From Escherichia coli (GTDB lineage: Bacteria; Pseudomonadota; Gammaproteobacteria; Enterobacterales; Enterobacteriaceae), in the NCBI RefSeq assembly GCF_030013205.1, contig NZ_CP122648.1: DNA of 64,000 nt. The stretch is one strand, 5' to 3'. The notes beneath the pieces are model-generated. The model made no database searches and was not told the DNA's origin. It worked only from the letters and a program-made list of their open reading frames with translations. Each line of letters opens with the position of its first letter. The first letter of the stretch is position 1. The translations under genes were made by a program, and so were the position numbers. Positions 2,168 through 43,858 of the stretch are shown here, piece by piece.

Positions 2168-2569
2168 GTGGCTTCTGTTTATATCAGCTGTCCCTCCTGT
2201 TCAGCTACTGACGGGGTGGTGCGTAACGGTAAAAGTACTGCCGGACATCAGCGCTATCTCTGCTCTCACTGCCGTAAAACATGGCAACTGCAGTTCACTT
2301 ACACCGCTTCTCAACCCGGTACGCACCAGAAAATCATTGATATGGCCATGAATGGCGTTGGCCTCAACACGATTTTACGTCACTTAAAAAACTCAGGCCG
2401 CAGTCGGCAACCTCGCGCATACAGCCGGGCAGTGACATCATCGTCTGCGCGGAAATGGACGAACAGTGGGGCTACGTCGGGGCTAAATCGCGGCAGCGCT
2501 GGCTGTTTTACGCGTATGACAGGCTCTGGAAGACGGTTGTTGCGCACGTATTCGGTGAACGCACTATAG
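2168..2569 (+). CDS. insA: IS1 InsA variant (11-aa deletion, read-through)
   Basis: [19 protein letters not shown]...[16 protein letters not shown] lacks [11 protein letters not shown] and continues past the usual stop (TAA changed to CAA). Confidence 0.7.
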
Positions 2570-33960: not shown

Positions 33961-34046
33961 AAAACCCACTGAATTCAATGTTTTCCCTTTGTTTTCAGTG
34001 GGTTTTGTTATTGGTGGGGGTTACTGATTACCCTATAAAACCCACT
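33961..34046. repeat. Putative prophage attL / integrase arm-site region with AAAACCCACT repeats
   Basis: AAAACCCACTGAA and its reverse complement TTCAGTGGGTTTT form a 13-bp inverted repeat; a third direct copy AAAACCCACT overlaps the int stop codon (approximate coordinates). Confidence 0.5.
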
Positions 34047-38292: not shown

Positions 38293-38682
38293 ATGATTGA
38301 CGCTCATGACTTCACAAGATGGGTGCGCACACAGGACACCCGTCTGGCTCCCGTTCTTCAGGGATTATTTGATCTCTACATCCGTGGTCGTGACAACAGA
38401 GCACGCACCACAAAACCGGAGAATGCAGACACCCTTTATTTCACAGTAGACGACTGCTACCGCGTGGACTTCACACCACACGGGCTGGCGTTGCACTGCC
38501 TGACACCACACGGCGAATCACTACTGGCGTATTACGACTCCCCGGCCTCCGTATTTGCGGCAATGCTGGCGCATCGCACTGCTGGCGGGTGTGCCTCGCT
38601 GAGTGAATACACCGCTGAATTTGACCGCCTTTCCGCCATCTTCTCGCAGGAGTGGCAGCGCGTGACGGGATACCAGCCATGA
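38293..38682 (+). CDS. Hypothetical protein immediately upstream of gpA (P2 gpB position)
   Basis: 129-aa ORF; stop overlaps the gpA start. Confidence 0.45.
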   Translation: MIDAHDFTRWVRTQDTRLAPVLQGLFDLYIRGRDNRARTTKPENADTLYFTVDDCYRVDFTPHGLALHCLTPHGESLLAYYDSPASVFAAMLAHRTAGGCASLSEYTAEFDRLSAIFSQEWQRVTGYQP

Positions 38683-41504
38683 GTGAGTTTGCATGGAGCT
38701 GGAATGAACCACGACCAGCCATTGATCCGGCCAGATTTACGGAGCGCAGGCAGGAAACTGAAACCGACTTGCAACGCGCCATCCGTTACTACCTTGAGGC
38801 GGACAAAAAGGCCCGGGAAGAACAGGAAGCGAAGGAGGAAGCCTTTTTCGCACAATCCGCCATGGGTAAAAAACTCATGGCATCCCTTGAGGAAGCCGGA
38901 CAGCGTGAAAAGCTGGCACAGAGCATCATCAGTAAGCGCCGGGCAACAGAACAAGACCCAGTAGCCCGTGCCTTTGCCACACTAAAGGCACTACCTGTTT
39001 ATCTGCGTGAACCACTGAGCCGCCACCTCTCTTTCCTGCGCAAAAAACAGGAAGCCGATCGCCAGAAAGGCAAAAAGAGCTGGCAGGCGGAACGCTATGC
39101 ACGCGGAACCCTGCGCAAAATATTCGAACGTCTAGATCGCACTGACGGACGCTGGCTGACACCGGGTTATCGCTCCCTTGCCGGGCGCGAACGCCTGGAC
39201 GATTTGCTTTACCTGCCGCAGCTCAACAAGCACCAGATACAGACGCTGGCCACCATGACCGCGGCGATGTTCAGCAGCACCTTCGAAACACTCTGCGATG
39301 GCTTTGGTGCCAGAGATGGCGAGCTGACCATGGATGTAATGTTGAAGGCTTACCGGATGCTGGCTCGTATCGCATTACGCCTGCACATCATGCCGCCACA
39401 TTACGAAGCCCTGAACAAGAGCGAACCGGATACGGAACTGCTGCCGGGCGCAATCCTTCGCCTGACCTGTGCGGACTGGTGGAAACGCAAACTGTGGCTG
39501 TTACGTTGCGAGTGGAGAGAAGAACAACTCCGCGCCGCCTGTCTGGTTTCCAGAAAAACATCACCCTATCTGAGCCAGGACGCGTTAAGCGAGTTTCGCG
39601 CACAGCGCGAGAAAACACGCGATTTCCTGAAAAGTTTCATGCTGGAAAATGAAGACGGGTTCACGATTGATCTCGAGACGGTGTATTACGCGGGAGTAAG
39701 TAACCCGGTTCACCGTAAGGCAGAAATGATGGCCACCATGAAGGGACTGGAACTTCTGGCCGAAGCCCGTGGCGACAGAGCGGTGTTTCTGACTGTCACC
39801 TGCCCGTCAAAATACCACGCAACAACGGAGAACGGTCATCCGAATCCCAAATGGAACGGGGCCACCATGCGCGACTCCAGCGATTACCTGGTTAACACGT
39901 TTTTTGCGGCGGTCCGCAAGAAACTGAACCGCGACGGCCTGCGCTGGTATGGCATCCGCACGGTGGAGCCTCACCATGACGGCACCGTGCACTGGCATAT
40001 GATGGTCTTTGCCCATCCGGAAGAAATCGACACCATTGTGTCCCACACCCGCGATATTGCCATTCAGGAAGATCGTCACGAGCTGGGCGATGATATTACT
40101 CCGCGCTTTAAGGCGGAGTATGTAGACGGCTCAAAAGGCACGCCAACCAGCTACATCGCCACCTACATCGGAAAGAACCTGGACAGCCGCGCCGTGGATG
40201 GCATCGACCCGAAAACAGGCAAACCACGCGTTGACCACGAAACCGGAAAATCAATGGCCGAGAGCGTGGAGCGCGCCATCGGCTGGGCGCGCCTTCACCG
40301 GGTCCGCCAGTTCCAGTTCTTTGGCATCCCATCCCGTCAGGTGTGGCGTGAACTGCGCCGCCTTGCCAGCCAGATGGCACGCAACCCGGAAGGCCCGCAA
40401 CGGCTGAAGGATGACGCAATGGACGCGGTTCTTGCTGCCGCTGATGCCGGATGTTTTGCCACCTACATTGAGAAACAGGGCGGCGTACTTGTTCCACGCA
40501 AAGACTACCTGATTCGCACCGCCTACGACCTCGCAGATGAGCTGAACGATTACGGCGAACAGAGCGTACAGATTTACGGGATCTGGTCACCACTCATCGG
40601 GGAATCCTCCCGTGTGTGCACGCACCCGGATAACTGGAAGCTGGTAAGACGTAAACCGGAAGCGGAAGACAGCACCCGCGAAAATGGTTTTGACCTTCAG
40701 GGCGGCCCTGCCGCCCCTTGGACTCGTGGCAATAACTGTCCCCGTGTACAGGAAGCAGGCAACAGCGGGACAGAACTGTCGGAAGAGCAACCAACACCGT
40801 GGCCGCAGATCCCTGACGGCGTTGATGTGGATGAATGGATGCGCTCACTGAAACGGCACGAACGCCGGGCGCTGATGCGTTCGCTGCGTGACAAACAGGC
40901 AAAAAACAGCAGTGATGAAATGCAGAGCTGGACACAGAGCCGCAAACAGCAGCGGCCTTTGCCTGATAACCACGAATTACTCGCTAAAGAATGGCGGGAG
41001 TCTGCCGAATCTCTCGGCCTGCATATCGGTGAACAGCAGATGCAGCACCTGTTACGGGGCGGCAGCCTGTACGTTGACGGCAGCATCATTGCACCGCAGG
41101 GATTTGAAATTGTACGCAAACCGGATACCCGCCCGGACAGCCGAATCACGCAGCTCTGGCAGCGCCTGAGCCGTAATCATGGCGTAAGCAGCACGGAGAT
41201 CCGCCATAACCCGGTCGCCAGCTATCTGACACAGCTGGGGGCATCAGACCCTGAAGCCGCCGCACGCCTGGCATCCACACTTCAGCAGGACCAGAACACC
41301 ATGAAAACCCCCGTTACCGTGCTTTCTGACATGCTGCGCGCCATCCGTGACGCAGAGCACGCACAGAGAATCAGTGAAACAACTGAACGCGCCCGCCGCA
41401 AAGCAGACCTGCTGCGGGGTGGCCTGATCAGTGGAAACAAAAAACAGACAGAAACGGGATTCACAAATCCCGTAAATGAGCAAAAAACGTGCCGCGATGT
41501 ATGA
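38679..41504 (+). CDS. A: Rolling-circle replication initiator (P2 gpA-like endonuclease)
   Basis: HUH-type motif ...GTVHWHMMVF... and catalytic-tyrosine region ...SYIATYIGKN...; about 940 aa. Confidence 0.8.
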   Translation: MSEFAWSWNEPRPAIDPARFTERRQETETDLQRAIRYYLEADKKAREEQEAKEEAFFAQSAMGKKLMASLEEAGQREKLAQSIISKRRATEQDPVARAFATLKALPVYLREPLSRHLSFLRKKQEADRQKGKKSWQAERYARGTLRKIFERLDRTDGRWLTPGYRSLAGRERLDDLLYLPQLNKHQIQTLATMTAAMFSSTFETLCDGFGARDGELTMDVMLKAYRMLARIALRLHIMPPHYEALNKSEPDTELLPGAILRLTCADWWKRKLWLLRCEWREEQLRAACLVSRKTSPYLSQDALSEFRAQREKTRDFLKSFMLENEDGFTIDLETVYYAGVSNPVHRKAEMMATMKGLELLAEARGDRAVFLTVTCPSKYHATTENGHPNPKWNGATMRDSSDYLVNTFFAAVRKKLNRDGLRWYGIRTVEPHHDGTVHWHMMVFAHPEEIDTIVSHTRDIAIQEDRHELGDDITPRFKAEYVDGSKGTPTSYIATYIGKNLDSRAVDGIDPKTGKPRVDHETGKSMAESVERAIGWARLHRVRQFQFFGIPSRQVWRELRRLASQMARNPEGPQRLKDDAMDAVLAAADAGCFATYIEKQGGVLVPRKDYLIRTAYDLADELNDYGEQSVQIYGIWSPLIGESSRVCTHPDNWKLVRRKPEAEDSTRENGFDLQGGPAAPWTRGNNCPRVQEAGNSGTELSEEQPTPWPQIPDGVDVDEWMRSLKRHERRALMRSLRDKQAKNSSDEMQSWTQSRKQQRPLPDNHELLAKEWRESAESLGLHIGEQQMQHLLRGGSLYVDGSIIAPQGFEIVRKPDTRPDSRITQLWQRLSRNHGVSSTEIRHNPVASYLTQLGASDPEAAARLASTLQQDQNTMKTPVTVLSDMLRAIRDAEHAQRISETTERARRKADLLRGGLISGNKKQTETGFTNPVNEQKTCRDV

Positions 41505-43172: not shown

Positions 43173-43532
43173 ATGATGAAAGATAATTCCGGAAGCCAGC
43201 GTGCATCAGTTGCAGTTATGGTAATGATTAAATTTGTGAAACAGTACACCGGAAAGCCAATCTCGCTCCGGCAATTAAGCAAAGAAACCGTTTCACTGTC
43301 ATATCTGGAGCAAATATTCAGATATTTACGGGAAAGTAGCCTGGTAAAAGCCACACGCGGCCCGGGTGGTGGATATATCCCAACAAAAGAAAATTACAGT
43401 GTTGGTGATATTGTCCGGGCAATGAAATGTTCCGGATTATATACACAGCACGTTATTCTGGCTGCACTGGATAATATTTCTTTAACCAGCCTGCAGGAAG
43501 ACACAAATTATCAGTTGTCTGCCATTGAATAA
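43173..43532 (+). CDS. Rrf2-family (IscR/NsrR-like) transcriptional regulator, short form without a C-terminal Cys cluster
   Basis: ...ISLRQLSKETVSLSYLEQIFRYLRESSLVKATRGPGGGYIPTKENYSVGDIVRAM... (typical Rrf2 wing/HTH signature). Confidence 0.65.
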   Translation: MMKDNSGSQRASVAVMVMIKFVKQYTGKPISLRQLSKETVSLSYLEQIFRYLRESSLVKATRGPGGGYIPTKENYSVGDIVRAMKCSGLYTQHVILAALDNISLTSLQEDTNYQLSAIE

Positions 43533-43533
43533 G

Positions 43534-43580
43534 AAAACCCGGAACGGGTGCGCAAATTCTTTGTGCGCCCGTTCCGGGTT
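43534..43580 (-). terminator. Long stem-loop terminator (19-bp stem, two G-U wobbles) downstream of the ogr-like gene
   Basis: AACCCGGAACGGGTGCGCAAA-TTC-TTTGTGCGCCCGTTCCGGGTT; a U-rich tract follows on the minus-strand transcript (approximate coordinates). Confidence 0.6.
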
Positions 43581-43600
43581 GGACAAGCGAAGCGCGTCAG

Positions 43601-43858
43601 CTATCCGGCCTGCAACAACTCCAGAGCCATTTGTTTTTCTTCCGGACGCATCCGCTCAATCAACAGCTTTAACACACCATTCTCCAGCCCGCTGGGCACC
43701 AGTGTGTGCGAGTAGGTCAGATTCATCACCCAGGTATGTCCGCACTCGAGACGGGTGCAACGGTAATACACATCAGCAAACTGATCGGTTTTCCAGGCTG
43801 TTTTCTCAATCACTGCATGTGCACCGCAGCAATGACATCGCGCTTTCTGTCTGCGCAT
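43601..43858 (-). CDS. ogr: Ogr/Delta-family zinc-finger late-gene activator
   Basis: MRRQKARCHCCGAHAVIEK...YYRCTRLECGHTW... (C-x2-C ... C-x4-C). Confidence 0.7.
   Translation of the reverse strand: MRRQKARCHCCGAHAVIEKTAWKTDQFADVYYRCTRLECGHTWVMNLTYSHTLVPSGLENGVLKLLIERMRPEEKQMALELLQAG

Follow-up and report, generated by a model that had tools for sequence, protein, structure and literature searches.

A candidate phiX174-type primosome assembly site beside the late operon of a P2-like Escherichia coli prophage

The window analysed here, a stretch of 64,000 nucleotides from Escherichia coli contig NZ_CP122648.1 (assembly GCF_030013205.1), contains a P2-like prophage integrated beside pheA/pheL. 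Within this prophage, a long hairpin between an Rrf2-family gene and a convergent ogr-like gene forms part of a 67-bp module that is very probably homologous to the complementary-strand origin in the F-G intergenic region of phage phiX174. With somewhat less confidence, the module (43534-43600) is likely a phiX174-type primosome assembly site (PAS; also called n' site or phiX-type single-strand initiation site, ssi) which works as such in this phage.

The F-G intergenic region of phiX174 reads TATAACGCCGAAGCGGTAAAAATTTTAATTTTTGCCGCTGAGGGGTTGACCAAGCGAAGCGCGGTAGGTTTTC. It contains a 44-nt hairpin AAC...GTT (2308-2351), which is followed by GGTTGACCAAGCGAAGCGCGGTAG. Reportedly, Shlomai and Kornberg located this 44-nt hairpin in 1980 inside a 55-nt n' effector fragment from the F-G gap. 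In the window, GGTTGGACAAGCGAAGCGCGTCAG is identical to the tail stretch of phiX174 (24 nt, GGTTGG...GTCAG) at 20 of 24 positions. Sixteen members of the family, all from plasmids and prophages and without phiX174, went into a covariance model (R1), whose matches in the window, in phiX174 itself and in other replicons are listed in Table 1. Phage P2 gave no R1 match, and the best one in phage G4 (6.3 bits, outside F-G) was not significant; the F-G sequence of G4 is unrelated. Among the features by which a PAS is recognised, the module has a stable hairpin of about 44 nt and homology to the phiX174 origin that includes the short 3' hairpin. Strand-confined activity, another such feature, is indicated by proxy, through a wobble bias and the higher stability of the + strand fold described below.

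According to a saturation-mutagenesis preprint on phiX174 (2026), the hairpin with its 5' stem at 2308-2326 is the terminator T_F, overlaps ori(-) and is a PriA binding site, while a short hairpin just 3' of it (2353-2373) is mutationally sensitive. As described in a review, the pas is the hairpin where PriA, PriB, PriC and DnaT load DnaB on SSB-coated phiX174 DNA.

Two microviruses fill the F-G slot in different ways: ID18, a member of the G4 clade, carries a phiX-type module (L058 1501-1592), whereas G4 carries a primase-type oric (L059 3884-4019). The module and the origin of G4 appear to be two options for a complementary-strand origin. Since they alternate in one slot, the conserved job of the module would be priming and not merely termination. 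A G4-type primase-only origin was rejected as the identity of the module itself, as neither R1 nor the F-G sequence gave any similarity.

Table 1. Features of the module, matches of covariance model R1 and neighbouring features. Positions are those of the window unless another replicon is named.
Feature	Location	Strand	Remarks
Complete module	43534-43600	+	A-run, 45-nt hairpin and 22-nt conserved tail; 67 bp
Long hairpin	43536-43580	+	45 nt, 21-bp stem; phiX174 counterpart is the hairpin from nt 2308 (PriA-binding T_F/ori(-))
Conserved tail TTGGACAAGCGAAGCGCGTCAG	43579-43600	+	Small hairpin; phiX174 counterpart is the short hairpin 2353-2373
R1 match, window	43532-43602	+	84.4 bits, E 1e-25; sole significant full-length match in 64 kb
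R1 match, phiX174	2304-2373	+	47.9 bits, E 1e-13; sole site in phiX174
R1 match, microvirus ID18	F-G gap		60.7 bits
R1 match, gokushovirus-like 4.6-kb contig		coding strand	49.4 bits
R1 match, P88 (P2-like)	abutting portal stop		53 bits
R1 match, P2-like prophage L011	6905-6975	+	52 bits
R1 matches, F-like plasmids	two sites	opposite strands	44 and 31 bits
R1 match, phage 186	30344-30392	+	16.7 bits; tail resembles F variant
Putative intrinsic terminator of the late P-Q-ogr operon	43525-43580	-	Same hairpin, then UUUUCUUAUUC
ori-like motif GCCCCTTGGACTCGTGGCAATAACTGT inside gene A	40713-40739	+	Resembles P2 nick region 29880-29908; aligns with annotated P2/186 nick regions
Gene A, P2-type rolling-circle replication endonuclease	38652-41504	+	Pfam Phage_GPA, E 4e-130; annotation
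Rrf2-family gene, last cargo gene of the gpA-gpQ hotspot	43173-43532	+	Pfam Rrf2, E 2e-13
Ogr/Delta-like late activator gene	43601-43858	-	Pfam Ogr_Delta, E 9e-13; stop codon abuts tail

A first-pass annotation of the window had described a long inverted repeat at 43534-43580, with a 19-bp stem, between the Rrf2 gene and the convergent ogr-like gene. Both the repeat and its position were confirmed: the left arm (43536-43556, AACCCGGAACGGGTGCGCAAA) and the right arm (43560-43580, TTTGTGCGCCCGTTCCGGGTT) enclose the 3-nt loop TTC, and the two genes flank it as annotated. The 19 bp are the Watson-Crick pairs, which two G·T(U) wobbles on the + strand extend to a stem of 21 continuous bp, while on the - strand both wobble positions turn into A·C mismatches. 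RNA folding gave -43.3 kcal/mol for the + strand (z = -6.2) and -36.0 for the - strand (z = -5.5), with no equally stable fold among 200 shuffles on either strand. The hairpin ranks first among the inverted repeats of the whole window in a larger-distance search; its apical stem is without an exact seed, and a short-distance setting misses it. Each arm is itself a small hairpin (43537-43549, ACCCG-GAA-CGGGT; 43567-43579, ACCCG-TTC-CGGGT, other strand), so that a three-hairpin or cruciform alternative fold is possible. The runner-up among the spaced hairpins of the window (33961-34006; arms of 18 nt with 89% complementarity, gap of 10 nt) is located between the integrase gene and pheL, at what is presumed to be attL or the terminator on the pheA side.

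What that earlier reading missed is that the hairpin is only one part of a conserved unit of 67 bp, with a 22-nt tail and a second small hairpin. Its idea of a structure that does more than terminate transcription, with another conserved role besides, is supported. In the small hairpin of the tail, GAC (43582-84) pairs with GTC (43596-98) and GCG (43587-89) with CGC (43593-95). The module occupies the entire gap between Rrf2 and ogr and has sharp borders, since homology among prophage variants with different cargo begins at AAAACCCGG (43534) and stops at GCGCGTCAG (43600). To the left of the module these variants carry Rrf2 or unrelated cargo genes; to the right follows the stop codon of ogr, an additional segment of 218 bp or a gene of 208 aa. 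The module is an invariant landmark, and the cargo changes on either side of it. Within the stem, a compensatory change from GG/CC to AT/AT is seen in prophage L017, two pair swaps in L021 and changes to or from G·T in L020 and L028. The extra segment of about 218 bp, found between the module and the ogr stop in some variants (L003 4068-4285; also L012, L028 and L031), is conserved, non-coding and not present in the window; it might contain cos or a small RNA.

The wider family surfaced only in distant-mode searches with short queries. With distant BLAST, the module matched E. coli plasmids at about 3000 places and PLSDB in at least 5000 records, while the 1.1-kb region had no near-identity BLAST match in phage or plasmid collections. 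The carriers comprise relatives of this prophage, P2-like phages (P88, and weakly 186), F-like, ColE1-like, MOBQ and IncX3 plasmids, and microviruses. On F-like plasmids the site lies between traT and traD and has the same loop and apical stem as in the window, with three compensatory pair changes. When one genome per species was scanned with the exact tail pattern, Escherichia albertii was found to carry the same module as the window, and the tail was also present in contigs of Dickeya, Rosenbergiella, Citrobacter, Serratia, Pantoea, Pseudocitrobacter and Xenorhabdus, as well as of Moraxella, Ramlibacter, Rhodoferax, Gallionella and Nitrosovibrio. Several of these contigs are small, of high coverage and plasmid-like. 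In almost every case a long hairpin of wholly different sequence stands directly 5' of the tail. Its length is nearly constant (43-45 nt in most members), and it begins with AAC (or AAT) and ends with GTT. In the alignment of 16 diverse members, the tail is invariant in 16/16 except for two loop positions, which suggests sequence-specific recognition. The stems of the same alignment are paired in 86.7% of the cells, compared with 62% after shuffling and about 37% with the partner column slid. Moreover, 16 of the 18 stem pairs change on both sides, and none of 500 shuffles reached the observed values.

Further observations concern individual members of the family. F-like plasmids carry two PAS-like modules back to back on opposite strands of the traT-traD intergenic region (L006 2420-2495 (-) and 2509-2554 (+); L002 2920-2995 (-) and 3005-3072 (+)), the - strand copy having the fuller tail. 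This pair recalls the paired opposite-strand n' sites of pBR322. At several loci (L007 1522, L034, L042, L004 1764, L005 2561 and L048), unrelated genes on the opposite strand end at a TGA inside CTGACGCGC at the end of the tail. Among them are the thermonuclease gene nuc, the entry-exclusion gene exc1 and a 176-aa gene after the MOBQ relaxase, all seemingly packed against the module. Burkholderia phage FLC5, a P2-like phage, has an exact 20-nt copy of the tail (GGACAAGCGAAGCGCGTCAG; L057 3501-3520) near its portal end, without an adjacent 44-nt hairpin. On two ColE1-type plasmids of Dickeya, a C4 antisense RNA (Rfam RF01695) follows about 130 nt 3' of the module (L038 1724-1810; L039 3287-3373). 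The Rfam scan itself returned no family for the module; its sole match, to a miRNA model, is a generic long-hairpin match.

As for the strand on which the hairpin acts, G·T/U pairs were counted in the minimum-energy stems of about 30 sequence entries, representing roughly two dozen distinct hairpins. There were 73 such pairs on the + strand, where the hairpin is 5' of the tail, versus 21 on the - strand, and the + strand was the more stable one in nearly every entry. Judged from this pattern, the fold is under selection on the + strand, the opposite of what selection for a - strand terminator would be expected to produce. The bias also holds in plasmids of the IncX3 type and of Pantoea and Serratia, in which both neighbouring genes have the + strand as their antisense strand, and this favours a role in single-stranded DNA over one in mRNA.

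The rightward genes of the prophage are, in order, the integrase, C, cox, early genes, gene A, ParM/ParR, a hypothetical gene and the Rrf2-family gene. The leftward genes are Ogr/Delta, the portal (Q-like) and the large terminase (P-like), followed by P2-type head genes and a Mu-like tail. The gpA-gpQ interval is known as the cos-proximal cargo hotspot of P2-like phages (PMC9122126). In relatives of the prophage the Rrf2 gene is swapped for other cargo and the module is retained. Of 5426 complete E. coli genomes, 44 have this prophage region. A ParM/ParR partition cassette of plasmid type (41581-42859) stands between gene A and the cargo in the window; its relatives are found in P2-like prophages in over 1200 complete E. 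coli genomes. Such a cassette hints at a stabilising function or at a phase of plasmid-like existence. In place of cargo and module, the distant relatives ESSI-2 and YenM324 carry a LexA box, then a small tum-like open reading frame and an ordinary short terminator hairpin (L008 3208-3525; L009 3346-3642).

The module lies about 2.8 kb 3' of the ori-like motif, on the strand of gene A. The same strand and downstream relation is found in P88, in L011 and, weakly, in 186, where the module is 1.8 kb past ori. The ori-like motif (…TTGGACTCGTGGCAATAACTGT) has a core, CAATAACTGT, that is conserved in P2, 186, ESSI-2 and YenM324. From this arrangement a replication model can be proposed. The A protein would nick the + strand at the ori in gene A (about 40,720), and the 3' end would be extended rightward. 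Rolling-circle synthesis would then displace the old + strand, so that the module would become single-stranded about 2.8 kb downstream; the gene A product is thus the presumed source of single-stranded DNA for the module. Once single-stranded, the module could fold and recruit host PriA (with PriB, DnaT and DnaC), after which DnaB would be loaded and primase would begin lagging-strand synthesis on the displaced strand. In P2, which is without the module, gpB is annotated as required for lagging-strand synthesis. No gpB homolog was detected in the window phage or in 186, both of which carry the module. Having no detectable gpB, the phage would depend on a host priming route.

Several points weigh against a PAS that works in this way. 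The anticorrelation between gpB and the module comes from only about five genomes, and the match in 186 is weak (16.7 bits). P2 replicates without such a site, and hence there is no universal requirement for one. The model presumes that the + strand is the one displaced by A and would fail if the - strand were displaced. In this respect, an excess of G/T at third codon positions, as expected of a displaced strand, is found on the + strand of P2 (R = +0.083) and 186 (R = +0.070), while the window prophage is without the expected + strand excess (R = -0.038 ± 0.021). Lastly, the U-run on the - strand could let a terminator role alone explain the position of the module, though not the tail or the strand bias.

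The hairpin probably does double as the terminator of the late P-Q-ogr operon, like T_F in phiX174. On the - strand the U-run UUUUCUUAUUC follows directly after the stem, as in an intrinsic terminator, and a terminator consensus scan flags a basal sub-hairpin with the T-run. No other hairpin lies downstream of ogr. The + strand has UUGGAC (UUGGACAAG) after the stem, without the U-run of an intrinsic terminator, so early and cargo transcripts are probably not efficiently terminated there. The comparison with cos and terminator regions of related phages, which the first-pass annotation had proposed, made a terminator role plausible, on the - strand only, at the end of the portal operon where the annotated terminators tQ and tW lie in P2 and 186; for cos it came out negative.

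Whether the module is nothing but a strong bidirectional or leftward terminator or insulator is a separate matter. In that case its likeness to phiX174 would reflect a shared ancestry of terminator cassettes, with no replication role here. The location between convergent genes with UUUUCUUAUUC behind the - strand stem would fit, as would tQ and tW after the portal operon, the ordinary short terminator hairpins of ESSI-2 and YenM324 at the same junction, and the frequent location of the module after the last gene of an operon on small plasmids. The phiX174 homolog, too, is itself annotated as terminator T_F. However, the pattern of wobbles and mismatches makes the stem weaker on the strand with the U-run, and throughout the family it is the other strand that this pattern favours. 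Termination also leaves unexplained the near-constant hairpin length of about 44 nt and the invariance of the tail from Enterobacterales to Betaproteobacteria and microviruses. Moreover, the module of the F plasmid lies inside the tra operon, which needs read-through, and the microvirus slot is filled alternatively by the module or by the G4 primase origin. Termination as the only role is therefore unlikely. A terminator or a 3'UTR-derived small RNA on the - strand was likewise rejected as the main function, since the fold is favoured on the other strand.

An RNA element on the + strand, for instance a stem-loop that stabilises the 3' end or an RNase III processing site that controls the decay of early and cargo mRNA, has very little probability. 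The G·U wobbles would fit the folding of a + strand RNA equally well, the module comes directly after the Rrf2 stop codon, and a 21-bp stem is long enough for RNase III. Nevertheless, the + bias is kept by the modules of IncX3, Pantoea and Serratia plasmids although they are antisense to both neighbours, the founding member of the family is a proven signal of single-stranded DNA, and no Rfam family was matched.

Just as improbable is a landmark of recombination or a small mobile unit, either as a linker for cargo exchange or as an integron attC-like cassette end. The homology breakpoints of the prophage variants lie exactly at both module edges, unrelated genes stop at the TGA within the tail, and GTTGGAC fits the attC core GTTRRRY. 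However, the far end of the hairpin lacks the complementary inverse core, and neither extrahelical bases nor an associated integrase are present; the conservation is one-sided and confined to the tail, and exact breakpoints are to be expected at any conserved island within a variable hotspot. An integron attC was rejected because there is only one core, the stem is continuous and the sole integrase is the P2-type phage integrase at attL. Resemblance to XerCD/dif is superficial only. An oriT, with the hairpin 5' of a conserved nick region, was rejected as well, since the module is found together with relaxases of the MOBQ, ColE1 and other types, and since F, IncX3 and the phages with the module have their own origins elsewhere.

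A part in the cos packaging signal of this phage is the least credible of these readings, even though the cos of P2-like phages sits between the cargo hotspot and the portal gene (PMC9122126) and the module is the only conserved non-coding block in that interval. Near the module, the 19-nt cohesive-end sequence of P2/186 has no match at up to 3 or up to 5 mismatches, and none was found in P88-like loci or elsewhere in the window. Phage 186 has its homologous element about 190 bp from cos, as a separate site, and many members of the family are carried by plasmids of about 100 kb and by single-stranded DNA microviruses, neither of which use cos. Of the packaging-related or regulatory second role put forward in the first-pass annotation, the packaging part finds no support, and the evidence points to a replication signal instead.

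If the module is a working PAS, an anonymous 'big terminator' is reannotated as a specific replication signal, namely the classical PriA site of phiX174 in a double-stranded DNA temperate phage. No publication that links a primosome assembly site with P2-like phages was found in the searchable literature, and a full-text literature search for the tail sequence returned unrelated primer matches only; searches on the terminator between traT and traD and on ssi sites of the F plasmid yielded nothing usable. A functional site would explain how lagging-strand synthesis starts after A nicking in P2-like phages without gpB, and such prophages are predicted to be sensitive to priA, priB and dnaT defects. 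Phage 186 is said to need host dnaC, unlike P2, and the module would fit with that old report. More tentatively, P2-like phages might fall into two classes with regard to the start of the lagging strand, one with its own gpB as in P2, and one with a phiX-type origin and host PriA, as in this prophage, the P88-like phages and 186. The same tentative proposal holds that a PAS is recognised partly by sequence: a near-invariant 22-nt tail, retained in plasmids, microviruses and P2-like phages from several bacterial orders, stands beside hairpins of arbitrary sequence and fixed length, which would argue against recognition by structure alone, as usually stated.

From a practical point of view, the 44-nt hairpin plus TTGGACAAGCNNAGCGCGTCAG is a compact and searchable signature for phiX-type priming sites. 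Sites with this signature abound in F-like, ColE1-like, MOBQ and IncX3 plasmids. The signature also raises the question which host factor reads the invariant tail. The module marks one edge of the gpA-gpQ defence and cargo hotspot as a fixed point, and it should be kept intact when this hotspot is cut or engineered.

Compared with known systems, the site of phiX174 is the closest. Both have an A-rich lead, a hairpin of 44-45 nt (AAC...GTT) with an AT-rich loop, and then a short hairpin GGTTG..CAAGCGAAGCGCG..AG; both lie on the strand of the gene for an HUH replication endonuclease and overlap a terminator. They differ in that phiX174 is a 5.4-kb single-stranded DNA phage and the phage in the window a double-stranded DNA temperate P2-like phage of 30-40 kb. 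The stem sequences are unrelated save for their ends, and the U-run follows the tail on the same strand in phiX174, whereas in the window it is on the opposite strand. The G4-type origin shares with the module the microvirus F-G slot and the job of priming single-stranded DNA. Unlike the module, it consists of three hairpins with direct DnaG recognition, according to the record annotation and established knowledge, and has no sequence or model similarity to it.

Of the P2-like terminators, tQ (P2) and tW (186) also stand at the 3' end of the P-Q(-ogr) operon and have a G+C-rich stem with a U-run on that strand. Their stems are only about 8-10 bp long, whereas the module has 21 bp, with two A·C mismatches on the terminator strand, together with a conserved 22-nt flank and homologs across unrelated replicons. 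The gpB system of P2 faces the same problem as the one proposed here, namely how DnaB and primase are brought to the strand that A-initiated rolling-circle replication displaces. P2 relies on a phage protein for this and has no PAS-like site, whereas the phage in the window has such a site and no detectable gpB.

The plasmid phiX-type ssi sites (pas or rri of ColE1/pBR322; ssi of F, R100 and ColE2) are also close to the module, whose family is found in F-like, ColE1-like, MOBQ and IncX3 plasmids. ColE1 has a tail-like motif (GACCGAGCGTAGCGAGTCAG) about 130 nt 3' of its ori, on the strand displaced by the unidirectional fork, an orientation that agrees with the model proposed for the prophage; its own site is unlike the module in that it matches in the tail only (11.9 bits). 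For small plasmids of the pHW126 type, a palindrome similar to ssi sites has been described in the literature. The phiX-type PAS or ssi is thus a classical kind of site that is known on plasmids, and its occurrence in a P2-like phage is the new part.

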